A DNA stretch of 64,000 bases, taken from positions 439-64,438 of the IMG/VR virus record IMGVR_UViG_3300013767_000112; one strand, 5' to 3'. A program made the position numbers and the translations under genes. Shown here piece after piece: positions 3,170 to 42,961 of the stretch (its first letter is position 1; every line of letters begins with the position of its first letter). The DNA comes from a virus. The notes under the pieces were generated by a model. The model was not told the origin of the DNA. It searched no databases and was given only the letters and a program-made list of their open reading frames with translations.

Positions 3170-3212
3170 AGTCTTGGCCATCCACTATGGACGGCCAAGC
3201 CTTACAGGGGTG
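3170..3212 (-). promoter_or_regulatory. Putative late promoter A (lysis cassette): palindrome 3198-3212, 22 nt, AAGACT
   Basis: Minus strand reads CACCCCTGTAAGGCT-N22-AAGACT, the same spacing as at three other late-gene starts. Confidence 0.7.
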
Positions 3213-3215
3213 GCG

Positions 3216-6200
3216 CTACAGATCGGCGCGCGCCCGCGCCACGTCCTCCCGCATCTGTTGGCGCATCGCCTTTGGCGCCGTGTCGGCAATGCGTTGATCC
3301 TTCGGCTTGGCCATCTCACGCACACGGCGAAGGACGTCTGGCATGCGCACCACCATCTGCTGATCCGGGTTCTTCGCGTTCCAGTCCGCAACGGCGTCGC
3401 GCGCCTGCTGCACCTTCGCCTGGTCCTTCTCGAAAATGCCTTGAGCCCACATGGAGCGGATCTCTTGTGCGCGCAGGTTGTAGAAGGCCTTGGCCTGCTG
3501 GTTCAGGCCATTGGCCTCCTGGATGGTGGCCACGCTGGAAGGCTGGAACCCGACCGCTTTCAACGCGGCTTCCATGGTGTTGGTGTCGAGCACCTTGTAG
3601 CCCTTCGCGTCGCGGTACATGCCCGTTGCCGCCATGTCCGCACCCTTGGCCAGGTTGCGCACCGCGGTCGGCGCCGTTTCGAGCAGCCCGCCGGCGATAT
3701 CGCCGCCAGCCACCTTGCGGGCACCGGACACGATGCGCGTCGCGAAGTCGCCGGCCGGGCCGACGATCTCCAGCACGTCACGAGTGTGGTTGTTGCTCTC
3801 CGTCAGCAGGCCGGTGCCAGGGATCAGGTTACCCATGCCCAGGCGGCCGGACACGTCCAGCGGCATACCCGGCAGTCCGGTGATGCCCTTGTCGATGAAG
3901 GATGCGATGTCGCGGCCGAACACGCTCTCCAGGAACTCCTGCTTTGCCCTCTTCGCCGAGAAGTTGTAGCCGGCAATCTGTGCCATGGCGTCGACCACGT
4001 CGTCCACGTCCTCTGCGAACGGCAGGCCGCCGGCGCCACCAAGCAGCATCAGCGTCGCCAGCATCAGCAGCGCGGCCTTGCGACCGTCCTTGCGTTCCTG
4101 CGACCCTTCTTCGCCCTGACTCCAGAGACGGCTCATCAGCTCGAGGTAGGCGATCGAGTACGTCTTGAACGTCAGCAGCGTGCCACCGACCGCGCCGCGG
4201 CCCCACTGCATCTTGGATGCCTTCGAGTAGACGAATTGGGTCTCCGTGACAGCGCGGCGCGCGAAAGTTGCCGGGTACGCCATGCCGCGGTCCTTCGCCA
4301 TGCGGTAGGCCGCAATAAACGTCACGCGACGGTTCACCTGCTCAGCGGCACCGAACAGCTTTCCCCAGGCAACGGACAGTCGCGCCAGCGAGTTGGCGCC
4401 CAGTGCTCGAGCATCCCCTACCCGGGTGCCGTCGCCAGCGCGCAGCGAACCGCTGCCGCGCGCTTGCGCCATGAGCTGGTGGACTTCCTGCGGGCTGACG
4501 GTACCGTCTTCCTCGGCGTCGTGCAGCGCGCGCGCCAGATCAGCCTCGTACTTGAACCCCTTCGTGGCCATCTGTCGGGCTGCCCGGCCAAGCTCGGTAG
4601 CCGCCTTGCGAGCGCCGCCGAACTGGCTGAGCCACGGGAAGGTAACCGCTGCCGGCTGGGTCATGTTGACCAGCGCCGATGCCACCGAGCCGCCAAGATA
4701 CTGAGCGAACAGCAGGCCGCGGACTGCTTGTGCTTCCTCCTGCGGGTTCTTGATGTAGTCGGCCAGCCGCACCGCGGCGTCCTTCAGTTCTCCCTGCTCT
4801 TTCGGAATTGCGTCGACGGCCTCAGACAGGTCACCCATGTGCAGGCCGGCCGCGGTCTGGCGGCTGTTGCTGTAGATGAAGGACGCCAGTACGCGGCCCA
4901 CGTCCTCGCTGTAGCCAGCAATGCCCTTGCGGTGGATCAGCCGGCGCATGGCGCTGCGGTTGGTCTTCGTCAGGCGCAGGTATTCCTGGAAGGCCTGGTC
5001 GCGCTCGCTATCGCCCTGGGAATCGAACCCCAGTGCGTTCCCAAATAGCTCCAGCGTCTCCGGCGTGATGCCGGCGAACAGCTTATAGCTTTCCTCGGAC
5101 AACGTGCCCTGGTTGACGGCAGCATCGGGGAAGGCGCCGCGCATCTGTTCGGCCATCTGGTTTGCCTCGCGCCGCGTTTCGAACAGACCGAAGTACTGGC
5201 GCTCGCCACCCTCTTCCACCACGTCAACCGTGTACTTGCCGAAGCGGGACAGCGGTGCATAGCCCTCAGCCTGCAGTTGGGTCACCTTCTCAGCCCGATC
5301 CATTACCCCGTGAGCCAGTTCCATCAGGTGGGTGGCTCTGTCGGGCCAGGCGTCAGCCATCTCAGCCAGATGATCACGCAGGATCATGGCGGCCGCGCGG
5401 ACGTCAGTCGCATCCATTACTCGGTCGCGCAACTCCTTCACGTCATCCCCGGCGTAGCGCAGCATGTCTGCTCGCGCCATGGTGTCAAGGCTGCGATCGG
5501 TCGCGGCGCGGAACTCGTGGTACAGCGCCACCTGCGCGTCGCTCAGATTGAAGAGGCCGCGCAACTCGGCATCGGTCCACACAACGCCAGGCTTTAGTAG
5601 CTGCGATTCGAAGCGGCTGTCGATCAGCTTCGCGAACTGGTCGTCCGAATGACCGCGCCAGGCGTGCAGCATGCCCTCAGGAATCTTGCCTTGCTCGAGC
5701 AGCATGGCGACTTTGTCTTCTGTGCTGAGGCGCGCGGCGGCCTCTGCCAGGTCGGCGACGCGTGCAGGCTTGCCGGCCGAGTCGCGCGCCCACAGCAAGG
5801 TTCCTTCGAAAATCGGCTTGGCCACGGCCTTGTTATCCGCGGCGCTGACCGGCGCCTTGGCAATGTCGCGCCATGTATCCAGCTTCGGCAGCAGTTTCGG
5901 CGCCATTTCGGCGGCGTCGTTCGCGTAGTGCGAAACATCGTCAATGAAGCCCTGCGCCGATTCGAACACCGGACGGAAGGCGGGCGAGCGCTGCGCCAGG
6001 TTGTACATCGTGCCGATGGTCTTGTGCCACCAGGACAGACCGCCCGGGGCGCTGAAGGTCTTGTTCAGCTCCTGAGTTGCCCGGCCCGCCATGTCGCGCA
6101 GGCCGGCACGGCTGAACTGCGGCCCCGTGTCCGATTCGTCACCCAGCCTTGCATTCAGCAGCCGGTGGAGTACACTGGCTACGTCTCCTGAATTGGACGA

Positions 6201-9200
6201 GCCGGAAGGCTGCTCTACCCCTGAGGTATCAGCACCGGATACTCGACTCTTCAGGAGATATTCTTTTGTGGCTACGGAATGCAGATACATGCGCTGCATG
6301 TTCGAGTCACGACGCACCAGGACGGTCACAATGTCGTCCTTCCCGTCGATCACCACCGGTGCCGACACGTAGAAGCTCTCCCCCTTGTGGTACTGCGCCT
6401 GATGCACCAGCGCGCCGCGTTCCAGCACGTCCTTGACTGCGGCGAACGCCGCGAACTTGTACGGGCTCGCCTTGCCGTGTGCCATGGAGTCGCGGACGGC
6501 GCGCCCGTCCAGCAGCACCTCACCCAGATCCGGATTCAGCGCCTGGCCACCCTGCTCCTTGAACAGGCTTGTGGCCCATTCGCGCACAGCGGCAAAGCCG
6601 ATCGGCGCCTCTTTCCCGGTCAGGACCGCCACCGGCGAACCCTGCAGCACTCGCGCCTTGCGGGCATCGTCTTGGCTCAGCGATACGCCCTTGCCGCGCA
6701 CGTCGCCACGAGCAGCGCGCTCCATGCCGGCCATCGCATAGCCGACCAGATCGTCCACGCTGATCGCGCCAAGACCTACGCCATTGCGCAGCATCCACTG
6801 GCGAACGGTAGCCAGGAAACTCCGCAGGAAATCACCAACGCGCTGACCGACGGTCTGGTCAACCCACGCCAGAAAACGGTTGTCAGCAGTGGTAAAGCCT
6901 TGGCTGCGCCCCTCGATAACAGCCTGCTCGACAATGTAGGCTGCTGCCTCGCGGCGATTCCCTTCCTCGCCGGCGGCAGCCATCCTGCCGGCCGCGCGAT
7001 CAAGAAACTCGCGCAAGGACCGATCTCGCACACTGGTACGCTTGCTCAGCATGTCGGCAGCATGCTGGTCCAGCTTCTGGCGCTGCTGGCCATGCGTCAT
7101 TTCGTGCAGCAGGACCGCCGGCGCCGTGATGGAGTCAAGGTTCGGCCCAACTAGGAACGTCAACCCGGACTTGGCATCGTAGAAGCCGTTGATCAGGCCA
7201 TCGTCCTCGAACAGTCGGATTGCACTGGACAGCGCGGTACCCGTCTTGGTGGCATAGGCATGTGCGATCAGAAGGGGATCGTTGCTATCGATCATCACGA
7301 CACCGCCGCGCATGCCGCGCCGACCGCGCTCCAGCATCATGCGCACCGCCTTGCCGAGCTTCGGAAACTGCAAATCGAAGGCGCGTACCAATTTCTGCGC
7401 ATCCATCATCGGCTGGCCGGTGATGTTTTGTGGCAGCTCGCCGTCGACAATGTCGCGGCCGTTGAACGTCACCAGCACCCGACTGCTGCGAACGTCTGCC
7501 GATTCCTCGGGGGAGATTTCGAGCCGCTGGCGGGGCGTCATGCGCATGCGCGCCTGGGTGTTTCTGGCCTCGACCTCACCCGCCAGGCGCCGGTATGTCA
7601 CCGCACCGGTCTTGTCGAAGTCGCTGCTGAAGCGGTCAGCGGAACCACCCTTGGCAAAGCCTTCCGTGTTCTGGATCTCGTGCTGCAGCTCGTGCACGAG
7701 CGCAGACGCGAGCGCTTCCCGGGGCATGTTCGGCTGGACTTCCACCACTGGGCCGGTGGCCAGATGGCGCAGACGGGCATCTGCCGCTGCGTTCGCCGGC
7801 ATCATGGCGATGGGGATGCGAGCCAATCGAGGGTACGCGGCAAACAGGCGCGGATGGACGAGAACGTCGGAAATCAACGGGCGGCTCCGGCCATCGTTCA
7901 GCGCGTTGACGCGCGCCATATCCACGACCGAGCGAGCCGTACTGCCCGGCACGGCGATGCTGGCCAGGTGGTCGCTGATCTCGAAGCGCCATTTTCCATC
8001 CGCGCCCAGGTGCCAACCAGTCTCCCGGCGCACCGTCTCCGCGGCCTCTCCAGCCATCAGCCGCTGCTGCGCCGAGACCAACGCATGCAAGTCAGCGCCG
8101 CGGGCCTTGCGGCCGGCAAACGAGAATTGGACAGCAGGCTCACCTGCTTCCGTCGGGGCCGTGGTATCCGGAGAGGCTTCATGCACGGTGGGCTTGTCGA
8201 TCACCACCATGCGCGCGCTCACGCCGGTATTGACCGGCAGCGCGGGGTCCAAGAACGATCCTTCCGGCAGCTTCTCGCTGGTGGCGCCCAGGTCGTCCAG
8301 CCAAGCGCGGAAGTTCTCCGCGGCACTGTTGCTGTGGAAGAACGCCCCTTCGCCCATGATCGCCACTAGGCGGCCACCCGGGCGCAGCAGCTCATAGGCG
8401 TGCATGACGTGCTGGATGTCCCGGCCCTTGCTGAATGGCGGGTTCATGATGATGCGGTCGTATCCGCTCCAGGAACCGCGCTGCCGGATCCCGGTCAACT
8501 CGTCGCGATCGAACCACCCAAGCATGCGGCCTTCGCTGCCGTCATCGTTGACAGCGTGCAGGCTGGCGCGTCCGCTCCATGCAGGCCCGCCGTGCATGAT
8601 GCCCACGATGCCGTCGGGCGCGCGGAAGACATCGCCGTAGGTGAAGAACTTGCGCGGCTCCATGGCCATGAAGTCATTGCCTGCCAGGTGGTAGCCCTTC
8701 GCCTCCAGCAGCTCGCGACGTTCACCAGACAGCTCCACCACGTCGGGCTCGGCGCCCGCCTTCTCACGGATCGCGTCGGCGATATGTCCCATGCCTGCGG
8801 ACGGCTCCAGCACCGACATCCCGGATTCAATCTCGGCCGCATCCAGCATGGTGTCCACGACGGCTTCGCTGGTTGGGAAGAAATCCAAACCATCGGCACG
8901 GCGGCCAATCATGGCCCGCTCCATCTCCTTGATCTTGTCGGGGGTGGCAATTGCTTCCTGGATGCCGGCGAACTCTCGCAGTGCGGACCGGTACTCGCTG
9001 CCGGTGAAAATGCCCATGCCCTCCAGGCGCTTGCGCTTGTCGTGCGCACTTTCCAGTGCCCACGGCACGGTGATCTTTCTGCCGCTCCGGCGGCTCAGCG
9101 CCTGCACCAGTTCGCATCCGAAGTCGCCGGACAGAGTGATGCGCTTATCGCCGTCGCCGGTCCACAGTCCCTGCTGCATGGCCTCGCTGGGCGCCATGAT

Positions 9201-12200
9201 GATGCGGTTCTGCCCGCGCTTGATCGGGAGCACGATCGCCTTACCGGTGAGGCCGGAACGGCGAATCGCGCGCTCAGCATCCTCACGGCCCTTGAAATCG
9301 GCGAGCTGATCACCACGAGTGAAACGGCTGACAGAAAGCAGATTCTGCTTTGCCCAATCGGTGTACGCCTCGGTCACGTCGTCTGCGACCTTCTCCAGGC
9401 GAGCGCCCAGCTTCTTCAGGCCGTCGGCATCCACCATTTGGCGAGCGAGGCTCGCCAGATCGGAGCGCATTGCCGTGTAGCTCGGGAATGTGGCGTAGTC
9501 CACGGTTTCCGCGTCCATCGGCTCGCCGCGGTGCCTCTCCTGCTCTCCATAGCTGGGGTACTTGGCACGAATCTGCGCATCTTTGGCGTTGCGCAGCTCT
9601 CGGCCCAGAAATTCCACCTGCACCTTTTGCCGCACTGCGTCCAGGAACTTGGCCTTGCCGCTCTCGATGGCGCTGGCCAAGTTATTCATGGTGCCGGCCA
9701 GCGCCTTGTCGGCGCGCGCGGCACCTTCCGCCGAGCTGGCCATGCGGGCGCGGCGCGCAGTGTTGGTCTTGCGATCGCGGTTCAGCGACTCGTCGGCGCG
9801 CTCGTCCAGTGCATCCGCCATGGTGCGCAGGCGCTCCACCGCCGACTGGCTGCGGTCGTCATCGAACGCGTCGCGGCGGGCTTCGGCAACGGCCTGCGCT
9901 TCGGCGGTATCGCCGGCTACCAGCTTGCGGAACGCTTCAGCCGCCTCACGGGTACGGAACTGGAAGCCAGGAACCGCGCCGTTGCCTCGATAGCTGCTGT
10001 AGCTACCGCCCAGCCGCTTCGCCGAGCTGTTGAGGGTGTCGTAGTCCTCGCGGCTCACGCGCTCAGCCAGTTGCAGCACGTACAGGTCGTGGCCGTGTTT
10101 CGTGTGCTTCGTCTCGATGATGTCGCCGGCTGTGGTCTGCCCGGCGCTGGCCACGCGGGTCTTCGCCTGGGACTTTGCCTGCTCGCGCTGGGCCTTGGTG
10201 CTTTCTGCCTCCAGCTCGTCGTAGCGAATGCGCTGATCCGGGGTCAGGCGCATGAACGCTTGCTGCCGTGTCTCGCCGTGGGCTTCCACGTTGTAGCTGA
10301 CGGCCTGACGGAAATCAGCAAGTGTCTGCGGATTGCTAACGGCCTTCTGCTGCGCATCGCGGCGCGCCTGCACTCCCTTGCGCGCCTCGACGATCTCGGC
10401 AGCATGTGCTTTGATGTCATCCGTGGTGGTATTGGCTACCAGATCGCGCAGTGCGGACGCCTTGGCTTGCCGGTGCGCCTCCAGCCCTGCGGCGGACATC
10501 ACGTAGCTGCTCGGGCCGTAGCTGCGGCCCAGCGCGTACTCGTCCAGGATGCGGCTGGCCAAGGCCTCCACGATCGCGCCCTTCTTCTCGTCGCGGAAAC
10601 GTTGGTAGAAGCTGAACCCGCCAGATTGCAGCAGGTCGCCCTTCTTCATGGTGGCCAATTCGGCGGCGATCGCCTCGCCACTGGCCTCGGCCAGATGAAA
10701 TGCCGCCTTGAACTCATCGGCCGTCGCGTCGCCAGCACGAACGCGCTTCATGAAGTCGACATGCGCATCCAGGCTCGGGGTTTTCGAACCGGCTGCCGGC
10801 GCCGCAGTGGCCACCTGCGGTGCTGCCGGCGAAGCCTGAGCTTGCGCGGCATCCTCGGCGCGCACGGCGTCCACCAGCTCACGCACCCGACGCTTCGATT
10901 CCGGCACGCTCATGCCGCGATCGCGGAACAGCGCCGCGAGGTCGAACTTGTCGTCGGTCAGCGTGCTGCCGTCCGTCGGAACCAGCTTGACGCTGGTCGG
11001 GTAGCCATCACGACCAAGGTTCACGCCGGCAAGGTTGGCGGTCTTGGTGATGGCCACCGGGTCGCCACCCTTCGTCCACGACAGGATCTTCCGCATCAGA
11101 CTGCGGTTGCCATCCTCCTTCCGCTGGGCCTTGTCGGCGCGCGCCACTTCGGCCGCTCGCTGGTCAGCGGCCTTCTCGTCATCAGTGCGTGCGTCGAGCG
11201 CTGCCTGACGCACGCGATCGGCGTTCGCCTTCTGCCAGGTGGTGAAGGTGTCAATGGCCCGGTCATACGCGCTGTTGCGATTGACCGCCTGCTTGCTGCT
11301 CAGACCGGAGCGGCCGGCGACATAGCCGCTGTAGGTTCCGGCGCGCACGCCCATCAGGCGGCGGTACTGCGCCAGGTAGTCGTCACGCAGTGCGGCAGCG
11401 GCCTGCTCGACGGCGGCCTTCTGTGCGTCGCTATGTGCGATGGCCATGCCGGAATCGCGGGCCGCGTCCTGGTAGGCCTGAAATTCCTCAGCATCAGCCT
11501 TGGCGCGCTGGTCGCCGCTATGGGAAATGCCCGAATAGCTGCTGGCCGCCTCCTTCATAGGGAATTCGGCCGCGCTTTCCCCTTCCGGCATTTCGACACG
11601 CCCCATGGGGCCGGCTTCGTGGGCGGCAGCATCGATGTGCTCCGAAGCGGCGGCTTGCGGCACAGTCCCAGCCGCGACCGGATCGCTCATCTCAACGGTC
11701 GAACTGGGGAACTCGTGCGCCATGCTCACCAGGTCGCGGATGGGCGCGTCCAGACGGATGGCCCTCACGTCTTCGCCCTTCTCGCGCGCGGCCATCCACT
11801 GATGGTGTCCGTCGAGGACGTGACCATCGCGGGAAATTAAAATCGAGCGATCACCGCCAGTGCGCTCCTTGGCCTTGGCCACCTTGTCGCGCGAGAATTC
11901 CGCTTGAGTCGGCTTGAGACTCGCTGCCGGCACCGTCTCTTCCTGGTGCTGCACGCCTCTGGCGTTCATGAAATTCACCATGGCGCCGCGGTGCTCTGCT
12001 CGGATCTGGGGCATTTCTGCGCGGGGGATTCCGATGGTTCCCGAATCCTTGTGGAACTCGGCCCAGCCCTCCCCGAGGTTCTTCCCTTCGATGTTTGCCG
12101 TGGTCAGTGGCACGCTCTTTGGCGTCTTGACCTGCTTCTGCGCGACCCTCCCCTCGCGCACCTTAGCGATGGCATCTTTCAGATTGGTCGGCTGTGATTC

Positions 12201-14084: not shown

Positions 14085-15949
14085 TAAACCTTCTCCCAAT
14101 TCTTCTGATCGGCGGGATTACCGCCCTTGAACTTGTAGCCAGCGCGCACGCTGCCAATCTGAGGGGCGCTCGGCGTGGCCGAAGCGGTCGACTGGTCCAT
14201 GAACTGGCCGGTCTGATTGTTGAGAACCCGCGAAGGACGCGTGACCACCGACATGGCTTGCGGTTCGTATTCCTGGCCACCGGGCACAACGGTGAAACGA
14301 TTTGGGGCTTCTTTGCCGGTCAGCACGCGGATCTGCTCCGCAATGGCGCCGCGCTCTTCTGGCTTCGCTGCGTCGTACTGTTGGTACAGCTTCTCAATCC
14401 GCTGAGCACTGCGGGTCTGGAAGCCGCGCGCTTCGACATCGGCGGCGGTGCGTTGCTGATCCAGCGCGTTGCTGGCGGCAAAGCGTGCGTTCTGGCCAAT
14501 CTCCTGCACAGCGGCGCGCTGGTTGGCGCCCTGCTGTTGCATTTCCTCGCGCGCGATGCCCGAGGCGTTTTGCTCGCGGGCAAGCGCCGTCCTGTCGTCG
14601 TTCTCCTGCAGACCGGCCAGCACCCGCAGTTGGCTTGCGGTGAGCTGACCATTCGGGGAGCCGCGATAGGGAGTCGATGCGGCGGCCAGCGCCCTATTGC
14701 GCGCCTCGTCATTGCGGCCAACATCGATGTACGCGGGGACACCGTCCGGAGCAAAGCCGACGGACGGGCCGGTGGCACTCGCGGTCATTGCCGGAACGGT
14801 GCTGACCGTCCCGCCGCCTCCCTTGAATCCGAGGTTTTCGCCAGTCGCTCCGGCTACGGTGTTCGCGTCGTTGGTGAACGAGTAGGTGCCATTTGCCTCG
14901 CGCTTTCCGACGACACCAGCGATACCGGTGGGAGAGAACGCGTTTCCGGTCTGCGCCGGTGCCGTCGCCGGCGTTGGCGCGCTTGGCGAAGCGTTGGCAG
15001 GCTGGGCTGTCACCGGCGCCGTCGTGCCGGCGCGCGCCGCCGATGGCGCTACGCTGGCTGGGGCTGCCTTGGGCGCAGGTGCCTGCGCCGCGGCGGACTG
15101 CTGGTCAAAGCCGAGCAGCCCGCCGGCGAAGTTCATCAGCGGCCGACCGGCCACGTTGTACAGGTCGTCGCTGGCATCAGCGAGCGCCGCCGGCACCGCG
15201 GCCGCCGTCCCGCGAACCAGCGTGCCCAAGCCGCGCGCGTATTCGCCGTTGCCCCATTGGCTGGCCACGTCATCGCCGGTTCCGCGGAGCACCGAATCCG
15301 TGCGCCAGCCAGATCCTTCCGTCCGCATCTGAGGAACGAAGCCGACGGACGATTGCGAGGCCGCGGCCTGCGGCGATGGCGAAGGAGTGGAAGGCGCGCT
15401 GCGGGTAGCCACCTGCGGTGCGCTAGCGGCTGGAGCCGCAGTCGATGCGCGGGGATCCGTCGGGTAGGTCGTGACCGGCTGCGACAGCGCGGCGGCCACC
15501 GTCGGATTGACGGCAGGCGCAACGGGCACGCCAGTGAGACCGCGCACCTTCTTGGGATCTTCGACCACGCCGCCGTCAGCGAAAAACAGTTCAGGCTTAC
15601 CGCCCGTCTGGGGCTGCGGCGGATTGAAGCCAAGTCCCGTGGTGCCTGCCGGCATATGGGTGGCGCCCTTCATGGCGTCGAGCGCCTGGACGCCGATGGC
15701 ATGCACCTGCTCGGGCGGCAGGACGTTTTCCCCATTGCTGAGATTCACGTCGACCGGAGCGCCCTTCCCCATCGTGGCCAGCTTGTCACTACCGATCTGC
15801 TCGGTGGAGTCGGCCGGCATGACATAGCTGCCGTTGGGGACCGTGGCCTGTACATCATCAGACGTACTCGTGCCTGGCCCCTCGACCTCGCCGCCGCCGG
15901 CATAGTTCTGCGCCTTGGGCGGTTTGGCGCCCTTCTTGAATCCGTGCAT
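14084..15949 (-). CDS. Internal virion (ejection) protein, Ala/Pro-rich
   Basis: GAGGGG RBS, GGEVEGPGTSTSDDV N-terminal motif, coupled to the giant protein. Confidence 0.7.
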   Translation of the reverse strand: MHGFKKGAKPPKAQNYAGGGEVEGPGTSTSDDVQATVPNGSYVMPADSTEQIGSDKLATMGKGAPVDVNLSNGENVLPPEQVHAIGVQALDAMKGATHMPAGTTGLGFNPPQPQTGGKPELFFADGGVVEDPKKVRGLTGVPVAPAVNPTVAAALSQPVTTYPTDPRASTAAPAASAPQVATRSAPSTPSPSPQAAASQSSVGFVPQMRTEGSGWRTDSVLRGTGDDVASQWGNGEYARGLGTLVRGTAAAVPAALADASDDLYNVAGRPLMNFAGGLLGFDQQSAAAQAPAPKAAPASVAPSAARAGTTAPVTAQPANASPSAPTPATAPAQTGNAFSPTGIAGVVGKREANGTYSFTNDANTVAGATGENLGFKGGGGTVSTVPAMTASATGPSVGFAPDGVPAYIDVGRNDEARNRALAAASTPYRGSPNGQLTASQLRVLAGLQENDDRTALAREQNASGIAREEMQQQGANQRAAVQEIGQNARFAASNALDQQRTAADVEARGFQTRSAQRIEKLYQQYDAAKPEERGAIAEQIRVLTGKEAPNRFTVVPGGQEYEPQAMSVVTRPSRVLNNQTGQFMDQSTASATPSAPQIGSVRAGYKFKGGNPADQKNWEKV

Positions 15950-15987: not shown

Positions 15988-16030
15988 ATACTCCGAGGCT
16001 CAATTCCGAAGGGCCAGCCCTACAGGGGTG
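15988..16030 (-). promoter_or_regulatory. Putative late promoter B: palindrome 16016-16030, 22 nt, GAGTAT
   Basis: CACCCCTGTAGGGCT-N22-GAGTAT, about 32 nt before ATG 15949. Confidence 0.65.
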
Positions 16031-16045
16031 GCACCGTATAATCCG
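16013..16045 (+). repeat. 33-bp direct repeat copy 1 with TATAAT
   Basis: GCCAGCCCTACAGGGGTGGCACCGTATAATCCG; 30/33 identical to 17283-17315. Confidence 0.9.
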
Positions 16046-16082
16046 GCTTCTCTATTGGGATCCCTGCGCTTCAGGAGAGTTG

Positions 16083-34814: not shown

Positions 34815-34883
34815 TGGGGTGTCCTACTTCCTGCGTGACAGGGCAGGCAGCACAGTGGCCGCCTGCCCGGATGGCGCCCGCTA

Positions 34884-35360: not shown

Positions 35361-35427
35361 ATGGCCTCCTGTGAATCGGGTATCGGAATGAGACGAGCCG
35401 GAGCCGGCGTTAGCCGGCTCCTTGCCA

Positions 35428-36720
35428 TCAGTTGCGGGCGCCGATGATGGGCACGGCCGTATCGACCACGGTCACGCCGTAGTCGGTGATTTCCTTGCCC
35501 ATGCCGGTGTCGACTTCGAAGCGAACCTTCGATACGCCGCGAATCGCGCCGATCAGCAGTTCCACCTTGTCGCCGTGGTCCAGTTCCTTTTCCGACCAGA
35601 AAAACGGGATGCCCGACTTGTCGGAACTGGCCAGTGCTTCGGCGATCGCCTGGCCACCGAGAATCACCGAGCGGTCGACGGCGAACTGCGTGCCGAAGCT
35701 GGCCGGCACCGTCGCGGTCGATTCGGTCTCGCTGCCCGCGCTACCGCAGTAGCGGATGACGTCGCCCGCGTAGAAGCGGATCGCCCGCGGCATCTTGATC
35801 AGCAGGAATCCGTTCCACAGACCGGCCTCGCCCAGGAACAGCGGGTGCTGCCCGGCTTGGCTCGCACGTGCCATTGCCGACGCCTGGAGTTGGCGGAAGC
35901 TCGGGTCCGACGCGAACTTGTTGTACTGCGCAGGCGACATCATCCAAACGCGCAGCGGCGAGTCGGTGGCAGCCTTATCACCCTCGAATTGCACGATCGG
36001 GGGCGGCAGCGGGATCTGATCGAGCACCGTGCGCATCGAGTCCACCGTGTCCATCTTGAAGATGTCGGTGGACTGGATGTCGACTTCGCCGCCGTTCACC
36101 TTGAAGCCGGTCACCGCATCGCCGTCGGCGATGAAGTGGCGGTTCTTCGACGGAGCCAGCACCGGGTTGACCATGATTTCGCCAAAGTCGGCATCTGCCT
36201 CGGTCGGCACCACCCATTCGATGTTGTTGTGGAAGCCGCGGGCGCCGGCCATATGCACGAGCAGCGACTGATCGACGTAGCGATCCATCAGGTTCTGCGC
36301 GGCGGGGCGGCCAAGCTGGCGGAATTCCACGGGCGTGCGGATCGACGTCATGGCGTCGCCCAGATCCAGCGGGAAGCGGGCCTGGTTCACGCGCAGCTTG
36401 TCTTCCGTAATGCTCAGACCCGTACCGCGGCCTTCCGCATAGCGGCTGCCCATGATCGGCTTGGCGCCGATCGGGTTCAGCAGGTGAAAGGTCACCTCGT
36501 CGCCCTTGCCCTTCGACAGATCCTGGCAGCGCACGATGGGCATGTGCTGCGTGGTCTGTTTGCGCAGCGTTGCTTCTGCACCGGCGATACCAGCCGGCAT
36601 CTTGCCGGTCAGCCGGTTCAGCGTGCTGTTACGCTGCATGTGGGTGGCGAACAGGCCAACGGCCTGTTGCACCATGTTTGTCTTATCGCCGTAGCTGGCG
36701 TGCGTCTTGGTCGCAGTCAT
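35428..36720 (-). CDS. Major capsid protein, N4-gp56 family
   Basis: DLSKGKGDEVTF..L, EG.G..L, W.E...DHG motifs; 430 aa. Confidence 0.85.
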   Translation of the reverse strand: MTATKTHASYGDKTNMVQQAVGLFATHMQRNSTLNRLTGKMPAGIAGAEATLRKQTTQHMPIVRCQDLSKGKGDEVTFHLLNPIGAKPIMGSRYAEGRGTGLSITEDKLRVNQARFPLDLGDAMTSIRTPVEFRQLGRPAAQNLMDRYVDQSLLVHMAGARGFHNNIEWVVPTEADADFGEIMVNPVLAPSKNRHFIADGDAVTGFKVNGGEVDIQSTDIFKMDTVDSMRTVLDQIPLPPPIVQFEGDKAATDSPLRVWMMSPAQYNKFASDPSFRQLQASAMARASQAGQHPLFLGEAGLWNGFLLIKMPRAIRFYAGDVIRYCGSAGSETESTATVPASFGTQFAVDRSVILGGQAIAEALASSDKSGIPFFWSEKELDHGDKVELLIGAIRGVSKVRFEVDTGMGKEITDYGVTVVDTAVPIIGARN

Positions 36721-36737
36721 AGAGCCCTCTTATCGGA

Positions 36738-37844
36738 TCACAGCGTGTTGAGGAACCGGTCGATCTGCTCGGGGGACATGTTCCCGCCTTGCATGGCATC
36801 GAGCAGTTCGCGTCCGTTCATGTCGGCCATTTGTTCGTCCCGCGAAAGACCGGCCGGGCGCCCACCAGGGAGATCGGTGAGGCTCGCCGGAACCCGCGTC
36901 GGGGCGTTGGCAATAGCCGCTTGGGCCGCCGCCTTCACGGCCGCGGGGTCCACCTGTTCGGTGCCGCCCGTGGCCGCGCCAGCGCCGGCGCTTTGAGTCG
37001 TTCCAGTTGCCTGCTTGAACGCGCTGAACAGTTCGATGACCTGTTGCGTGGAGCCCTTCTGGAGCACCGTGCTGTAGCCATCGCGGACGAAAGACGGTTG
37101 CGTGTTGATCCAGTCCGCCAGCTCCTTGCTTTCCGCAAGGGAGTCGGCATCCGGGTGCGCTTCGTAGATGGCCGCGTAGTGGGTCTGGGTCGCATCCGTC
37201 GCGTGCTTCTGCTGGATGGGTGCCAGCTTCTGCGCCACGATGGCATCGACCTGTTGGGCCACCTTCGCATTGACAAGCGTCTGAATGCCCTTGGCCAGAT
37301 CCTCTTCGCTGAAGTCGCCGAAGATGCCCGGATCGATGCCCTGGTCGATGGCTGCTTGCGCGGCCGCCACCTGGGCGTCGGTCTGAGTGGGCGTCTGACC
37401 AGCATCCGCGCGCGCCTTGGCCTGTGCCTGCAACTCGGCAAGCTGGGTCTGCGCGGCTTCAGCCTGGGCCTTCCAGTGCTTCTCGCCTTCTCGCGCCTCC
37501 ACCAGCTTGTCGTAGCTGATGGTGTGCTTTCCGTCCTTCGCCAGAATCACGGCGTTGCCGGCGTTCAACTCGTTCGCGGCGGCGGCCGGCGTTGCTGCCG
37601 GTGCTGCTGCGGGAGTGGCGGCCGTTGCTGCCGTGGCACTGTCATTCGCGCCGGTCGTGCCGGCATCGCCTTGGGCCGAACCTGCCGCCGGCACAGGGGC
37701 GGCGCCGGGCTGCGCTGCCAGTTCCGACGACGTAGCGCCGGTATCGCCCTGCCCGCTCATCTCCAAGAGTTGAGCGGCCTGCGTGGGGGAAAGGTCGCCG
37801 TTCAGCGACTGGATAAACTCGTTTTGTTGGTCGGTAGTGGTCAT
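36738..37844 (-). CDS. Scaffolding protein
   Basis: Acidic/Ala-rich, ILAKDGKHTISYDKL, helical; between portal and capsid. Confidence 0.7.
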   Translation of the reverse strand: MTTTDQQNEFIQSLNGDLSPTQAAQLLEMSGQGDTGATSSELAAQPGAAPVPAAGSAQGDAGTTGANDSATAATAATPAAAPAATPAAAANELNAGNAVILAKDGKHTISYDKLVEAREGEKHWKAQAEAAQTQLAELQAQAKARADAGQTPTQTDAQVAAAQAAIDQGIDPGIFGDFSEEDLAKGIQTLVNAKVAQQVDAIVAQKLAPIQQKHATDATQTHYAAIYEAHPDADSLAESKELADWINTQPSFVRDGYSTVLQKGSTQQVIELFSAFKQATGTTQSAGAGAATGGTEQVDPAAVKAAAQAAIANAPTRVPASLTDLPGGRPAGLSRDEQMADMNGRELLDAMQGGNMSPEQIDRFLNTL

Positions 37845-37943
37845 GCCTGTGTCCCGCCACATATCGCCGTGGCCGCAGGGGTCGTCAGCAATGCGGATTT
37901 CTCCGCCCATCGCCTGCGCACGAGTGCGCATTGGCTTGGCCGG

Positions 37944-37986
37944 AGTGTGCGAATGGCACGCACAAACAGAAAGCCCTACAGGGGTG
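37944..37986 (-). promoter_or_regulatory. Putative late promoter E (scaffold/capsid): palindrome 37972-37986, 22 nt, CACACT
   Basis: CACCCCTGTAGGGCT-N22-CACACT in the portal-scaffold gap. Confidence 0.7.
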
Positions 37987-38039
37987 ACCTGCAGGGCTGA
38001 GGGACAATGCGGTGTGTAGGCCCTGGCGTCAGCGGGCGC

Positions 38040-40373
38040 TCAATGCTCACCCGGAAGGTTGTCGTCCGTGCGCGGCGTCTCGATGCCGCGTTGGGCGGTC
38101 GGCGCGTCGGTAGGCACCGGCGGGAATGTCGGACTGGTGTTCCGATGCACGGGCGTGGCCTCGCCTGCCTCTTCCGCGGCGTTGGCATCCTCCGGGGCGC
38201 CGGCACCGGCCGGGCCCTGGCCCTGGATGTACGGCGACTTGATGTTCATGGCCGCCGTCTGCGTCGCCACCGGGAAGTTCGGGTCGTCGCCCATGGGGTT
38301 GGGCCGCTGGTATCCGGCGCCCTGCATGACGGCATCAGCGATCGGGGCAATCATCGGCATCTGTGCGATCTGCGCACCTGCCTGCATCGCGCTGAATGCC
38401 GCCTGCACCCCGATCTGCACGGACGTCGCATCGATCTGCTTGATTTCGCTGTTGGCCTTGCGCTCCTTCAGCTCGAGTTCGCGTATCTTGATGTCATTGC
38501 CGGCCTTGGCCAGGGCATCGGCCACAGCCTTCTTGATGGCCTCCGCCTGCTGCTCCGGCGTGGCCTGCGTCTGCACGCTGCGGATGGCTTCCACCACGTC
38601 GCGCTTGAATGGCACGTCCATGAGGCTGACCAGGAACGGCAGCACGGCGGCCTGATATTCCGGCGGCATGCTCTTGACGGCCTCCGACATGGCGTTGAGC
38701 TGCTGGCCGCGGTAGCTGTTGGTACTCGGGACGTCGTCCACGGCCACCTTCAGGCGGGTGCGCTGCAGGTCGTTCGACAGGTAGGCAATGCCGGTAGCCG
38801 GGTCGACCTCCGGCGCGTTGATCACCACCGTGCGATCTGCCTTGACCGCATCGCCCTCGATGATGACCTCGTGCCGCGCCGTGCCCATGTCGGCGATAAT
38901 CAGCGACAGCAGCAGTTCGCCGACCAGCGTACGGCCACCGCGGAAGTTGTCCATGGGGATCGACAGGCTCTGGTTCGACTGCTCGACCTGGGTCTGCTCC
39001 TGGACGCCGGACTTCGCTGTGCCCTGTCGCCCCACAAAGCCGCTGGTGATGCTCGAAACCCGCTCGATGGTCTGGCGGTTGTCGTTCAGCATCTGAAAGT
39101 GCTGCTCGGTGAGCTGGTAGTCGCGCTTCACCTCGAACTTGGCGCCCTGCTGGGCCATGTGTGCGGCGTCCAGCACGATATCGGCATCCGGCCGCGCCAC
39201 CTGCCGGCGCAGTTGTGCGTCGGTCATGGCCACGGCGCCCTTGGTGCGCTCAATGCGGGTGACGCTCATACCCCAGCGCAGCTTGCTGTTGCCGCTGTTC
39301 AGGCTGTCCTGCGCGTACTTCATGCCGCGGACAAAGCCGTACGGCACGCCGGTGTTGTCCTCGCGGAACCCGAAGAATGGGACGTATGGGAAATGGCGGT
39401 GGCTATATGGCGACGGGCCGTCGTGCAGTTGATGCGGGCCCAGCCAGTAGGCGCGACGCACCCGGGTGACTGTTGCGTACTCCACCTGCGCCAGACCGCG
39501 CGCCACGGCGACGTTATGCGACAGGTTGTCGTGGTCAAACTCCACCACTCGGCCATCTGGCGTGCGGATGATGGGCACGCGCGCCCAGCGCCGGTACCAG
39601 ATTTCCGACACGCACAGTTCCTTGCTGGTCGGGTTGAACCAGCGGTCTTCCTGCATGGTCCACGCGCGCCCCTCGTTCCATGCGTTGGCCAGGCCGGTGC
39701 TGGTGCCACCGTCCATGCTCAGCGTGCGGTCTGCCCACCACAGCGGGCCATGAGTGCCGCATGACATGATCATTTCGGCGTTGTCCGGGAACACCAGCGC
39801 GATACGCTCCTTGGTCAGCCAGCGCTGCCGACGCAGCCACCTGGCCGCCGACCAGTCGTCGCCGCACTTCATGTCCCAGTGGATCTCGTTGCGGTGGATC
39901 GGCGTGCAGCGGTACGGATACTTGAACGGGTCCGACTCCTTGGCCACCTCCACCCAGCCGACACCGCATCCGATCTGTGGGCGGAACGCCTTACTGCACG
40001 CGCTATCAGCCTTGGACTCGCGCTCGGCCTGGTTCAACTTGAAGTTCAGGGCATCGGCCACGTCCTGCCCGCCGGGCTGGCCGTTCGGCGAGACGCGCCA
40101 GTCGCTGCGAATGGTCGCCTCGTAGCCCTGGATCGACAGAAGGGCCGGCCCGATCAGGTCTTCCACGGCAGGGGGAATGCCAAGCTCGGCCATCTTGCGC
40201 AGCAGCTCGCCGTCAAGCTGGTTGCCGTCGGCATAGTCCATTTCCTTGTCGGCAGTGCCGCGCCACCGCGGCTGCTCATCGATCTCGCGGTAGATTTCCT
40301 GGTATTCGAGCTGCGACAGGGGCTCGGTGCCGGCCGGAATGCGGTTGATGTCTTGCATGGTGGATGTCCTCAT
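38040..40373 (-). CDS. Portal protein (P22-like)
   Basis: 777 aa after TerL; YADGNQL, HFPYVPF, Q...N...SK, SGVQ motifs. Confidence 0.85.
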   Translation of the reverse strand: MRTSTMQDINRIPAGTEPLSQLEYQEIYREIDEQPRWRGTADKEMDYADGNQLDGELLRKMAELGIPPAVEDLIGPALLSIQGYEATIRSDWRVSPNGQPGGQDVADALNFKLNQAERESKADSACSKAFRPQIGCGVGWVEVAKESDPFKYPYRCTPIHRNEIHWDMKCGDDWSAARWLRRQRWLTKERIALVFPDNAEMIMSCGTHGPLWWADRTLSMDGGTSTGLANAWNEGRAWTMQEDRWFNPTSKELCVSEIWYRRWARVPIIRTPDGRVVEFDHDNLSHNVAVARGLAQVEYATVTRVRRAYWLGPHQLHDGPSPYSHRHFPYVPFFGFREDNTGVPYGFVRGMKYAQDSLNSGNSKLRWGMSVTRIERTKGAVAMTDAQLRRQVARPDADIVLDAAHMAQQGAKFEVKRDYQLTEQHFQMLNDNRQTIERVSSITSGFVGRQGTAKSGVQEQTQVEQSNQSLSIPMDNFRGGRTLVGELLLSLIIADMGTARHEVIIEGDAVKADRTVVINAPEVDPATGIAYLSNDLQRTRLKVAVDDVPSTNSYRGQQLNAMSEAVKSMPPEYQAAVLPFLVSLMDVPFKRDVVEAIRSVQTQATPEQQAEAIKKAVADALAKAGNDIKIRELELKERKANSEIKQIDATSVQIGVQAAFSAMQAGAQIAQMPMIAPIADAVMQGAGYQRPNPMGDDPNFPVATQTAAMNIKSPYIQGQGPAGAGAPEDANAAEEAGEATPVHRNTSPTFPPVPTDAPTAQRGIETPRTDDNLPGEH

Positions 40374-42001
40374 AGGCGCCAGTCAGGCGTATCCGCTTCT
40401 ACGTAGGTGTTAGATTTCGTGGTGGATTCGAGCAAGCCCAGTTCCTTGGCCTGTGCCCATTGCCGGAGCGCGTCGGCGCCTTCGCTGCAGCCGTTGCTCT
40501 TGTCCGGCTGGTCGATGAAGCGGTTATCCGCGCGGCTAAATTTCTTCCGGTAGCCCTCGATGCGGGTGATGCCCTTGGCGCAGCCGGTCTCATCGAAGTA
40601 CGCGCCCTTCAGGTGCTTCCGTGTCTGCTGTACGCCGGTGATCAGTTCGGTGATCCGCGGCACGATGATGAAAGTCTCGCCGGGCAGCAGGTCTTCCAGC
40701 ATCTCCTTCGTCGTGCGGTTGTAGTCGCTCAGGCGCTGGTGATTGGCGTCATGCGGCAGGTAGTGCCGGCCAAACACGTAGCCGCGGTCGCGCAGCTCCT
40801 TGACGTAGTGCCGCAGATCCTCGTTGTGCGCTTCGTAGTAGTCGATGAACCGGTCTTCGCTGCGCATCTCCTGATGGAACCAGACCGCGCAGCCGTCGCT
40901 GCGGCCAATGTCCCAGAAGGTGTTGACTGGCAGGTCCAGCCGCGGCACGCGCGTGATGCCACCGCGCTTGCGCAGCGCGATCATGTCCTTGGCGTAGTAG
41001 TTGCCCTCGGTGCTGATCTGGAACGCCTCAGCCGGGAAGCTGGGGTATTCCTGCCACATGCGCTCTTCCTTGCCCTTGAAGTCGGCGCGCTTCGTGGCCA
41101 CGTACCAGGCTCGCTGGTCCGGATCGATGGTGATGGCCTGGCCCATGTCGGCCAATACCTTGGCCTCGACCATGTCGAAGTACTCGTGCTCTTCGCGGGT
41201 GATCGCGACGGTGCGGGCGTCCAGGCGGTACTTTGGCTCCTGCCACCAAGCATAGAAGTGGAAGCGGTAGTCCTTCGGCGTCAGCAGCTTGCGGCTGGCG
41301 TGGTTCCTCTCGGCCGTCTCGACCATGTCGAAGAACTCGCCCTCCCGGCCCTCTGCCGTCGACTCGATCACCAGGATGCCGTTCGTCGGCACGGACGGGA
41401 TGGAGCCCGTCATGACCTCCTGCGCCTTGTCCGGGTACTTGGCGCAAATCTTCCCGAACTCGGAGACATGCAGGCGGTGGATCGTGCCGGACCGCATGGA
41501 CACGGCCACGCGGATGCTGCTGTTGTTGTGGGCAAACAGCAGTTCGGACTGGGAGTCGCGCGCAAGGGGGAAGCGCTCGCGAATCTCTTCGGGCAGGTTG
41601 CGGTAGGCAAACTGCACCTTGTCGCGGAAGATCGCCACCGCGGCCTGCAAGTCCTGCGCGATGATGCCGCACCGCTGGTCGGCATTGAACAGGGCGTGAT
41701 CCAGCCACAGGATGCAGATCAGGGTGGTGAAGCCAAGCTGCCGTGCCTTCAGGATCAGGTTGCGGTGCCACAGGCGCTTGATAAAGCGCCGCTGCGCGCG
41801 GTTGGGCTTGAACGGCAGGACGAACGACTCGCCCTCGATCACCTGACCATCCGGGCCGACCTCGTCGTCGCCCTTGATCATGATCTTGTACAGGCAGCCG
41901 GAGAACAGGCGCCATTCCGGGTCCGCGAGGCAGCGCGCCAGTTCCGCCGCGTCCGTAGGGAGCGGCAGAAGCGGCGTATCGTGCGTCACAGTGCCGGACA
42001 C
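40370..42001 (-). CDS. Terminase large subunit
   Basis: ILKARQLGFTT Walker A, LHVSEFG Walker B, ESTAEG, WDIGRSD nuclease motif. Confidence 0.95.
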   Translation of the reverse strand: MSGTVTHDTPLLPLPTDAAELARCLADPEWRLFSGCLYKIMIKGDDEVGPDGQVIEGESFVLPFKPNRAQRRFIKRLWHRNLILKARQLGFTTLICILWLDHALFNADQRCGIIAQDLQAAVAIFRDKVQFAYRNLPEEIRERFPLARDSQSELLFAHNNSSIRVAVSMRSGTIHRLHVSEFGKICAKYPDKAQEVMTGSIPSVPTNGILVIESTAEGREGEFFDMVETAERNHASRKLLTPKDYRFHFYAWWQEPKYRLDARTVAITREEHEYFDMVEAKVLADMGQAITIDPDQRAWYVATKRADFKGKEERMWQEYPSFPAEAFQISTEGNYYAKDMIALRKRGGITRVPRLDLPVNTFWDIGRSDGCAVWFHQEMRSEDRFIDYYEAHNEDLRHYVKELRDRGYVFGRHYLPHDANHQRLSDYNRTTKEMLEDLLPGETFIIVPRITELITGVQQTRKHLKGAYFDETGCAKGITRIEGYRKKFSRADNRFIDQPDKSNGCSEGADALRQWAQAKELGLLESTTKSNTYVEADTPDWRL

Positions 42002-42004
42002 TGA

Positions 42005-42910
42005 TCAGTCCTCGCCGTCGGCGGGCACGTTGGGCACCGGTCCAAACGCGCTCGGCGGGGTACCGGCGTGCTCCGGATCGTTCGCCACCGGCATGATGGC
42101 GTTGCCGTTGCCCTTGGCAATGGTGTGCAGAAGCGACGTGAGCGGGTCGGTCTTCTGCTCGTTGTCCTTCTCGTAGAGACCCAGGTGCTTGAACAGTTTC
42201 TCCATGGCCGCGTCCTTGGAGTGCATCTGGATCTCGATGCCGAACTTGGTCTGCTTGACGCCAGCGAACAGGGATTGCGCGGCGGCGGACAGGTGGCGGG
42301 TGTCCATCAGCACGACACGGGCAATGCCGCGGCCAGCGCATTCCGGGCATTCCGGATGGGGCTGGCTATTCGGGCTGAAGCCAATGCCGCCCGCTTCATC
42401 GAAGTGCTCCGACTTGTCCCGAGCTTCGGCCGCCAGCCATTCGTCATAGGCGCGGTCGCGCTCTGCCCTGGTGCGCTGGAACTGGTGTCCCTCGCCATGG
42501 CAGTAGCGGCAGCAGCCAATATGAAGCTGGGTCAGTTCCCGGGCGTCGGCCGTGACTTGGTTCCAGGCTTCACGCAGCACGCGGTCGGCGGTGATCTCGG
42601 TGCGTTCCTGCTGGCGCTTCCGGGCTTCTGCGATTTCTGCCTGAATGACAGGTTTTGACAGGTTCTCGGCGCCCTGCTGTCTCGCGGTCTTGGCGCTGTA
42701 GCCGGCACGGATCGCTGCCTGGGTGGCGTTGTTGTCCACCAGGTATTCGTCAACGAACCGCTGCTGCTTCGGGGTAAGGGTTTCCACTGCCGACTCATGA
42801 GCGTGGTCAGTGGCCGGGCGAGCAGAAGCCTTGGCAGCGCGCTTCTTGGCTGCCTGGGGCTTCTTCGCATTGGGTGTGGCGCGCTTGGGCGCCTTGGGTA
42901 CGCTGGCCAT
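42005..42910 (-). CDS. Terminase small subunit with Zn-binding insert
   Basis: LTPKQQRFVDEYLVDNNATQAAIRAGYSAKTA; CCRYC...CPEC. Confidence 0.92.
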   Translation of the reverse strand: MASVPKAPKRATPNAKKPQAAKKRAAKASARPATDHAHESAVETLTPKQQRFVDEYLVDNNATQAAIRAGYSAKTARQQGAENLSKPVIQAEIAEARKRQQERTEITADRVLREAWNQVTADARELTQLHIGCCRYCHGEGHQFQRTRAERDRAYDEWLAAEARDKSEHFDEAGGIGFSPNSQPHPECPECAGRGIARVVLMDTRHLSAAAQSLFAGVKQTKFGIEIQMHSKDAAMEKLFKHLGLYEKDNEQKTDPLTSLLHTIAKGNGNAIMPVANDPEHAGTPPSAFGPVPNVPADGED

Positions 42911-42918
42911 AGGCGGCC

Positions 42919-42961
42919 AGTCTTGGGATACAGGGCGGGAGCGTCCAGCCCTATAGGGGTA
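42919..42961 (-). promoter_or_regulatory. Putative late promoter F (terminase): palindrome 42947-42961, 22 nt, AAGACT
   Basis: TACCCCTATAGGGCT-N22-AAGACT, 8 nt before ATG 42910. Confidence 0.7.

Follow-up and report, generated by a model that had tools for sequence, protein, structure and literature searches.

A repeated palindrome marks putative late promoters, with a candidate winged-helix activator, in an F116-like phage genome

A short near-palindrome, called the box in the following, occurs six times on one strand of the phage DNA analyzed here, which raises the question of what the repeated sequence does and which protein reads it. The DNA is a 64-kb window (the term refers to the whole stretch) of the 66.6-kb IMG/VR virus record IMGVR_UViG_3300013767_000112, which originates from a subsurface metagenome and has a GC content of 62%. 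An earlier note on this DNA had proposed that the box belongs to activator-dependent late promoters with a fixed 22-nt spacing. Our best explanation of the whole, to which we assign a probability of roughly 72%, follows that proposal and adds a candidate regulator: the box would be part of sigma-70 late promoters that are switched on by a winged-helix protein encoded at 45301–45840 (minus strand). With regards to its parts, the box sites very probably function as late promoters, and the winged-helix protein is likely, at a lower level of confidence, to be the reader and activator of the box.

With up to two mismatches allowed, the box YACCCCTRTAGGGCT was found at 3198–3212, 16016–16030, 17286–17300, 26423–26437, 37972–37986, and 42947–42961, all on the minus strand, and all six copies read in the direction of the gene (transcribed) strand. 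Only two further matches reached this threshold, a weak one at 25167–25181 and one that merely echoes the palindrome at 42947. In shuffled sequence, the mean was 0.10 matches, and none of the shuffles reached 8. At a maximum of one mismatch, the whole 66.6-kb record contained the six sites only and zero on the other strand, so that the six minus-strand copies listed in the earlier note were borne out. A position matrix built from the sites of relatives was then applied to the window and returned exactly seven places, again all on the minus strand, with 25 to 32 bits for the complete sites and 18, 15, and 10 bits for the others. The match at 25167–25181 (two mismatches, 9.7 bits, hexamer absent) was discarded as a probable chance match.

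At four of the copies, a -10-like hexamer follows after exactly 22 nt, as had been claimed: AAGACT at 3170–3175, GAGTAT at 15988–15993, CACACT at 37944–37949, and AAGACT at 42919–42924. The chance of finding an A in the second and a T in the sixth position at a fixed place is approximately 0.035 at 62% GC, and by hand calculation it is approximately 2e-5 for four out of six sites. The assignment of the downstream genes confirmed that these four sites precede the lysis, ejection, scaffold/capsid, and terminase genes. As promoters, the copies held up in part: four of the six are complete, whereas those at 17286 and 26423 come without a usable -10 element, and the box at 37972 doubles as an arm of a terminator hairpin. 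The four complete promoters, named A to D, and their first genes are the following.

42947–42961, minus strand: box of promoter D, TACCCCTATAGGGCT, with a perfect 10-bp palindrome core (32 bits); heads terS, terL, and portal
42919–42947, minus strand: core of promoter D, with the -35-like TGGACG (42942–42947), a 17-bp spacer, and the -10-like AAGACT (42919–42924)
42005–42910, minus strand: small terminase gene (terS), with its ATG 8 nt past the -10-like hexamer and without a Shine–Dalgarno sequence
37972–37998, minus strand: terminator-like hairpin after the portal gene, with 11 pairs and a T-rich tail; its 3' arm is the promoter C box
37972–37986 and 37944–37949, minus strand: box and -10-like CACACT of promoter C
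36738–37931, minus strand: scaffold gene, start codon uncertain (37931, 37910, or 37892)
35428–36720, minus strand: major capsid gene
16016–16030, minus strand: box of promoter B, CACCCCTGTAGGGCT (26.8 bits)
15988–15993, minus strand: -10-like hexamer GAGTAT of promoter B
15949 (ATG) to 14084, minus strand: 621-aa gene with the ribosome-binding site GAGGGG, followed by the 3627-aa gene (3216–14099)
3198–3212, minus strand: box of promoter A, CACCCCTGTAAGGCT (27.7 bits), 4 nt past the stop codon of the giant 3627-aa gene
3170–3199, minus strand: core of promoter A, with the -35-like TTGGCC, a 12-bp hairpin (3173–3199) that fills the spacer, and the -10-like AAGACT (3170–3175)
3114 (ATG) to 2854, minus strand: holin gene, followed by the endolysin (2334–2987) and then the spanin gene

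From this arrangement, transcription is predicted to start at approximately 42911–42912 (D), 37937 (C, upstream of the scaffold gene), 15981 (B), and 3163 (A). The terS mRNA would then be leaderless, beginning at or 1–2 nt before the ATG, which lies in the same place in relatives. Promoters A, B, and C leave leaders of approximately 30 to 50 nt with good ribosome-binding sites. The -35-like elements of the window are weak (TGGACG, TTTCTG, TGGCCC, and TTGGCC), and a canonical sigma-70 promoter is absent from the late region. For the 621-aa gene, the PHROG match starts at residue 19 of the longer open reading frame (ORF). Downstream of promoter C, the scaffold leader or 5' end (approximately 37850–37881) encodes the peptide PCGHGDMWR, which is conserved in phage Dartukuta, there apparently as part of a short ORF that precedes the scaffold start given in the annotation.

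The same anatomy recurs in related phages. LKA5 and four 64-kb IMG/VR sequences (G001–G004) have the box on the gene strand throughout and share its four positions with the window: past the end of the giant gene, ahead of the 621-aa gene, in the interval from portal to scaffold, and ahead of terS. The phages F116, 8P, USP_25, and the lower-GC Shewanella phage Y11 kept it at both positions examined (before terS and between portal and scaffold); the promoter D position carries a box in G001–G004, USP_25, F116, and LKA5 alike. Across relatives, the sequence of the 22–23 nt spacer drifts, while its length remains constant and the hexamer is kept. At A, the hexamer is AAGACT or AAAACT. At B, where the window has GAGTAT, relatives carry GAATAT, GAAGAT, GAACAT, or CAAGAT at the same spacing. 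Every relative examined shows CACACT or GACACT at 22–23 nt at C, and at D, with the forms AAGACT and ACAATT, the hexamer of the window is unchanged in diverged relatives.

For a broader comparison, 80 loci were retrieved via the winged-helix protein alone and searched with the 11-mer core, allowing for one mismatch. They contained 165 box copies on the gene strand compared to 28 on the other strand, the latter mostly palindrome echoes, and nearly all copies lay downstream of the winged-helix gene. After removal of sites with flanks more than 75% identical, 118 sites from approximately 70 related phages remained, which were aligned with x = 0 at the first C of CCCCTRTAGGG. In this alignment, the box occupies x = -1 to 12, the bases favored at x = 12, 14, 15, 16, and 17 are T, G, A, C, and C, respectively, and the stretch x = 18–34 is uninformative. 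Beyond it, A at x = 36 (91/118) and T at x = 40 (87/118) stand out. Counted together as A2 and T6, they define a hexamer starting at x = 35 (22 nt) in 85 sites and at x = 36 (23 nt) in 31 sites, where 5.4 are expected per position. The block at x = 12–17 shares at least three of six letters with TTGACA in 80 of the 118 sites, compared to 2–20 in shifted windows, and its consensus TnGACc is located exactly 17 bp from the hexamer. If the A at x = 36 is taken as -11, the palindrome core (x = 1–10) is centered at -41.5, a value that depends on the hexamer being the -10 element. The conserved spacing of 22–23 nt and the A2/T6 pair support the reading of the earlier note as an activator-type late promoter, and with the hexamer as -10 the box would cover approximately -48 to -35, in agreement with the class II activator position suggested there.

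A further feature of the alignment concerns the start codon. An ATG is found at x = 48 in 29 of the 118 sites and at x = 47–49 in 39, without a ribosome-binding site, compared to about one per position elsewhere, and this arrangement of hexamer and ATG recurs in F116, G022, G030, and Acidovorax phage AP1 despite sequence divergence. Such a start codon is usable only if the mRNA begins there, and it therefore lends independent support to a start 7–8 nt past the hexamer. About a third of the sites are thus predicted to give leaderless mRNAs. In F116 itself (locus L055, NC_006552.1, approximately locus position 10254), the geometry would move the start codon of terS to an ATG located 75 nt before the start annotated for F116p38, and the 25 extra codons are Lys/Pro-rich, like the N-terminus of the window terS. 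Within the box, the right half TAGGGYT, which lies beside the -35 element, is more conserved than the left, and the center accepts GT, AT, or CT; some genomes use the variants CCCCAGTAGGG or CCCGTGTAGGG. The number of box promoter units per relative genome ranges from three to seven.

Which protein would read the box? The 179-aa protein encoded at the end of the early operon has 429 homologs and shares 40% identity with LKA5_037, a homolog of F116 gp37. Its structure model consists of a winged helix (residues ~8–75), a small beta domain, and a 50-residue C-terminal helix, with a pLDDT of 80–92 over residues 11–100. The N-terminal 70 residues superimpose on winged helices, including those of DNA complexes, with Z scores of 9–10 and an rmsd of approximately 2 Å over 65–70 residues, and Foldseek gave a probability of 1.0 to the N-terminal domains of DtxR and IdeR. 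Among solved structures, neither a sequence relative nor a match to the whole protein was found, the resemblance being to the generic winged helix only, and the protein atlas holds only clusters that are unnamed or tagged AbiEi_4. The latter family (PF13338) is the sole sequence family that the protein resembles, with a match at residues 24–71 that scored 19.2 bits against a cut-off of 25 bits. Some homologs carry a precomputed PF13338 match and are named accordingly in databases, from which a relationship between the winged helix and the AbiEi_4 domain follows. The label AbiEi antitoxin that the family bears in databases is misleading; an AbiEii toxin was not found among the flanking minus-strand ORFs scanned, one NinB-like and the other outer-membrane-barrel-like without a Pfam match, a scan that did not extend to the plus-strand ORF at ~44785–45143. 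In relatives, terS directly follows the winged-helix gene without the cargo block to which this small ORF belongs and which, in the window, lies between the winged-helix gene and the terS promoter.

The distribution of the protein provides good circumstantial evidence that it belongs together with the box. All five named box-carrying phages encode it. Contigs of at least 45 kb were also collected solely through an exact match to a 17-mer of the box; 26 of these 27 encode the protein, as do all 21 with a completeness of 90% or more. The distant mosaics G005, G022, and G030 retained the protein together with three to five same-strand boxes, although G030 is without detectable homologs of the capsid, portal, scaffold, and large terminase proteins of the window and G022 without detectable capsid and scaffold homologs; the winged-helix protein is the only early-region protein detected in all three. 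Dartukuta and AP1 combine diverged homologs with variant boxes at the same spacing and with the same ATG. Conversely, Bcep22, Ralstonia NK-7, Erwinia PEp14, Klebsiella SopranoGao, and Pseudomonas Skulduggery, which have the large terminase gene in common with the window (65–72% DNA identity), showed neither protein nor box above a reversed-pattern control. Vibrio and Stx phages that share the capsid protein were absent from the tblastn matches of the protein, and in the one of each that was scanned no box stood out above the chance level. Read from positions, the first box lies within approximately 150 nt of the stop codon of the winged-helix gene in about a third of the loci.

We had also considered a covariation of box and protein. 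Proteins with DDNL coincide with TATAAGG boxes and those with an RVERG wing with CCCGTGTAGGG boxes; as evidence this was dropped, since DDRL proteins are likewise accompanied by TAAGG boxes in places and the whole pattern follows phylogeny. That the box is read by a phage RNA polymerase or sigma factor was also rejected, as none is encoded and the giant protein is a polyvalent LPD-domain protein.

The position of the candidate gene becomes clear from the gene order of the window, which is listed below from the immunity region onwards. In its packaging and head genes, the DNA is 73–77% identical to the Pseudomonas phages F116, LKA5, phiC725A, 8P, and USP_25 (genus Hollowayvirus and neighbors), which are temperate podophages. 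The window itself is part of a temperate podophage related to F116.

51393–51947, plus strand: CI-like repressor gene
51049–51315, minus strand: cro-like gene, opposite the repressor gene
47980–49077, minus strand: O-like replication gene
46936–47559, minus strand: resolvase-like gene
45888–46295, minus strand: NinB-like gene
45301–45840, minus strand: 179-aa winged-helix gene, last of the early rightward operon
Between the winged-helix gene and terS, minus strand: 2.3-kb cargo region including an outer-membrane-barrel-like gene
42910–38040, minus strand: terS, terL, and portal genes
Next, minus strand: scaffold and major capsid genes, then ~19 kb of head and tail genes
Next, plus strand: 2.8-kb block of cargo genes
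15949–3216, minus strand: 621-aa gene, then 3627-aa polyvalent protein gene
Next, minus strand: holin, endolysin, and spanin genes

The outer-membrane-barrel-like gene of the first cargo region (43204–44406, minus strand) encodes a 400-aa protein with a signal-like N-terminus and a terminal aromatic residue, for which no Pfam or PHROG match was obtained. The 3627-aa protein (3216–14099) contains LPD23 and LPD3 domains, which are associated with large polyvalent proteins, and is a homolog of the giant proteins of F116-like phages.

Set into this order, a full copy of the box would act as the upstream half of a late promoter for the host sigma-70 polymerase. The box CCCCTRTAGGGYT would occupy approximately -48 to -35 around a center at -41.5, and the weak -35 element TnGACc would overlap its end and be followed by a 17-bp spacer; the weak -10 element, nAnAmT, would keep the two critical bases, A at -11 and T at -7. 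With core elements this poor, such promoters are expected to be silent until the box-bound phage protein recruits or stabilizes RNA polymerase, probably through a class II-type contact to the alpha subunit or to region 4 of sigma. Observed are the sites with their conserved geometry and gene context, the fold of the protein, and its co-occurrence with the box, whereas the start sites, the binding of the protein to the box, and the activation itself are inferred. The winged-helix protein would be made last from the early operon, which gives a simple early-to-late cascade in which late genes follow the early ones and stay off in the lysogen. The late region would be split by the four promoters into terminase and portal (D), scaffold, capsid, and tail (C), injected proteins (B), and lysis (A), with promoter B transcribing the 3627-aa polyvalent protein gene.

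Several of the promoters are combined with hairpins. Whereas the promoter C box is itself the 3' arm of the terminator-like hairpin listed above, USP_25, F116, and Y11 have a separate terminator 20–30 nt upstream of the box, which results in the order terminator, box, spacer, hexamer, and gene. The spacer of promoter A forms a hairpin of 12 pairs at 3173–3199 (-25.4 kcal/mol, z of -4.4), which G001–G003 kept with an altered upper stem, and at promoter D a hairpin (42929–42955) is formed by the spacer together with the 3' half of the box. As these hairpins lie upstream of the predicted starts, they can form only in transcripts that enter from the unit before, and most simply they would end, stabilize, or silence this read-through RNA.

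A related structure was observed in many relatives, where the -10-like hexamer lies in the loop of a GC-rich inverted repeat of 5–7 bp, with a 3' arm that ends just before the leaderless ATG (loci L194, L199, L201, L203, and L209 in G030, G022, and G018; furthermore L097, L104, L106, L110, and L119). The stem sequences vary between promoters, and the repeats are striking at the terS promoters of many relatives. Stems of at least 5 bp flank the hexamer in 16 of the 118 sites compared to 0–11 in shifted windows, which is a modest enrichment.

The two incomplete copies differ from each other. The copy at 26423–26437 (minus strand, 18.4 bits) lies within the 3' end of a 1327-aa gene, 97 nt before the head-closure gene (25136–26326), and has TCTGAT at the hexamer position, which is not a good -10 element. 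It encodes Pro-Val-Gly by the codons CCT, GTA, and GGG, which make up 9%, 8%, and 13%, respectively, of their codon families in the late genes, and LKA5 has CCTGTAGGG at the equivalent place. The rare codons together with the retention in LKA5 suggest selection at the level of the DNA, and due to the poor -10 element the copy is at most a weak internal promoter before the head-closure gene. The copy at 17286–17300 (minus strand, 15.3 bits), with an unusable CAATCG at the hexamer position, duplicates part of the promoter B region, and the first codons of the 621-aa gene are contained in the duplicate. It faces the antisense of a plus-strand cargo gene and is probably a remnant. In G004, the closest relative, the 621-aa gene has tandem paralogs, each with its own box promoter (L040 and L044; G004:C1:44845 and 46771), and the second of these is headed by the counterpart of the 17286 copy. 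The window has kept one of the two, and plus-strand cargo genes have replaced the other.

At the same two places, a direct repeat of ~33 bp (16016–16048 and 17286–17318) comprises the box and, 6 nt further, a perfect TATAAT on the opposite strand (16037–16042 and 17307–17312). Each copy faces a plus-strand cargo gene with low GC3, located at 16080–17207 (with a weak HNH match) and 17458–18834. A protein bound to the box would cover approximately -33 to -19 of these divergent TATAAT promoters and could repress them during lytic growth.

Other explanations have to be weighed against an activated promoter read by the winged-helix protein. The sites could be late promoters whose box is read by another small early phage protein or by a host factor, for which the functionally unassigned ORFs at 46415–46933, 49405–49866, and 50454–51011 would be early candidates. 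The acidic recognition helix of the winged-helix protein and the partly phylogenetic nature of the co-occurrence speak for such a reader, which we nevertheless consider unlikely: no other early protein was detected throughout G005, G022, and G030, relatives without the winged-helix protein are also without the box, and a host factor would have to account for a box kept in phages of Pseudomonas, Shewanella, Acidovorax, and other hosts. Improbable is the idea that the box is the loading site of a processive antiterminator of the Q or AlpA type that reads through downstream terminators. It draws on the gene position, which is that of lambda Q, on terminator-like hairpins in the late region, and on the fact that Q-binding elements are likewise located at promoters. 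However, each genome has four to seven units of box plus promoter instead of one, the terminators stand just upstream of the boxes and not downstream of the starts, the weak core elements are as expected for recruitment, and a PF06530 homolog was not found.

That the box acts in RNA or as a structure (terminator arm, processing site, or stability hairpin) rather than as promoter DNA would agree with the 11-bp terminator-like hairpin at 37972, with the pairing of the 3' half of the 42947 box with the spacer, and with the common orientation of all copies relative to transcription. Yet the box is unpaired at sites A and B and in USP_25, F116, and Y11, where the terminator is separate, and the -35-like element, the fixed A2/T6 hexamer, and the ATG at x = 48 are promoter features without a role in a hairpin, which makes this option very improbable. 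Hardly credible are recombination scars or module boundaries without a regulatory role. It is true that the copies at 16016 and 17286 flank cargo insertions and that modules are replaced beside boxes in mosaic relatives, but strict orientation, fixed hexamer spacing, and homologous positions across distant genomes are not expected of scars, and recombination at shared promoters would result from the repeats without competing with their function as an explanation.

Some observations weigh against the activated late promoter and its winged-helix reader themselves. The -10 element is without the usual T at -12, the -35 element is poor at sites B and C, and two of the six box copies have no usable -10. 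The 10-bp palindrome is short for a symmetric dimer, as it would place two winged helices one helical turn apart, and its left half is less conserved. Unusually, the acidic pair in the putative recognition helix (IDDRL) is invariant. Common descent accounts for part of the co-occurrence of box and protein, and the covariation between protein residues and box variants is suggestive, not clean. In 8P, USP_25, and Y11, the winged-helix gene is located 6–12 kb from the small terminase gene. Of the RNA runs with raw reads that were searched, none contained this phage; one root metatranscriptome (contigs) matched 7% of the sampled words, and over 35400–43100 it yielded short pieces from relatives only, which are uninformative on starts and ends and were not used as evidence.

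Homologs of the winged-helix protein number in the hundreds and were found in phages and prophages of Pseudomonas, Thauera, Aeromonas, Shewanella, Acidovorax, and others. The promoter system appears to be widespread among temperate phages of Pseudomonadota. We lean towards the view that a widespread and so far undescribed family of phage late activators, in which an N-terminal winged helix is followed by a beta domain and a long helix, serves a promoter class of its own with a CCCCTGTAGGGYT box centered at -41.5, often with leaderless mRNAs and often with hairpins within the promoter that end or silence read-through RNA. A published description of the box or the regulator was not found in the full-text literature, where the F116 genome paper (Gene 2005) was outside the search and may contain a mention of an intergenic repeat. 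In the LKA5 record, promoters are annotated from ab initio prediction, and the box is not named among them. While the kind of switch is familiar, we could not find the box and the protein family described, and they are apparently not homologous to known systems.

F116 is a classical generalized transducing phage of P. aeruginosa, and its relatives are common prophages; an account of late-gene timing in these relatives was not found in the literature. If the explanation is true, the regulator and its promoter would explain the cascade from lysogeny to lysis in the F116-like group. The pair would also represent a compact, orthogonal, and probably tight activator–promoter module for Pseudomonas and related hosts, and its transcripts would constitute a natural set of leaderless late mRNAs in Gram-negative phages. 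For annotation, the box marks the heads of late operons and corrects start codons, as for terS of F116 and the 621-aa gene of the window.

The earlier note had not recognized its late regulon from the P2 Ogr, Mu C/Mor, or lambda Q systems, which fits our domain searches. Six-frame searches of the whole record gave no match at E ≤ 0.1 to the Mor domain (PF08765), the Ogr_Delta zinc finger (PF04606), the Q protein (PF06530, the only Q family searched), or sigma-70 region 4 (PF04545), and the model of the candidate with its winged helix, beta domain, and long helix is unlike the all-helical sigma domains. With the AbiEi antitoxins, the candidate has in common the AbiEi_4 winged-helix domain, by its weak sub-threshold match, but its setting is the early operon of a phage and not a toxin–antitoxin pair. 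In the RinA/ArpU-type activators of Gram-positive phages (RinA: PMC3152322), the likeness lies in the place of the regulator gene, just ahead of the one for the small terminase, and in the target, which is the promoter in front of the packaging and morphogenesis genes. These activators, however, serve only one promoter, located before the small terminase gene, their sequences are unrelated, and a sigma region-4-like domain was not found here.

As in lambda, the early rightward operon ends with the regulator gene, which stands just before the late genes, whereas Q serves one late promoter by terminator read-through and the present phage has several units with terminators upstream. P2 Ogr and P4 Delta resemble the system in that four late operons with weak promoters respond to a phage-encoded activator via a conserved dyad located upstream. 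Both are zinc-finger proteins, which bind a TGT-N12-ACA dyad centered near -55, and the Ogr_Delta domain is absent from the record.

In logic and geometry, the late and middle promoters of Mu and class II promoters of the CRP type appear to be the closest counterparts. In Mu, the late promoters (Plys, PI, PP, and Pmom) are activated by C and the middle promoter by Mor. These promoters have a recognizable -10 and a poor -35 element, with an imperfect dyad that overlaps the -35, is centered at ~-43, and is bound by a small phage protein of the preceding gene class. The window shares with them several late promoters per genome and a dyad just upstream of or overlapping a poor -35; in contrast, the candidate combines an N-terminal winged helix with a beta domain and a long helix instead of the Mor/C fold, the box sequence is unrelated, and some of the transcripts are predicted to be leaderless. 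Compared to class II CRP promoters, protein family and box are different and an effector domain is not evident in the candidate, yet both place the center of the activator site at approximately -41.5 (from an inferred start here), where it overlaps or replaces the -35 element of a promoter for sigma-70 RNA polymerase.

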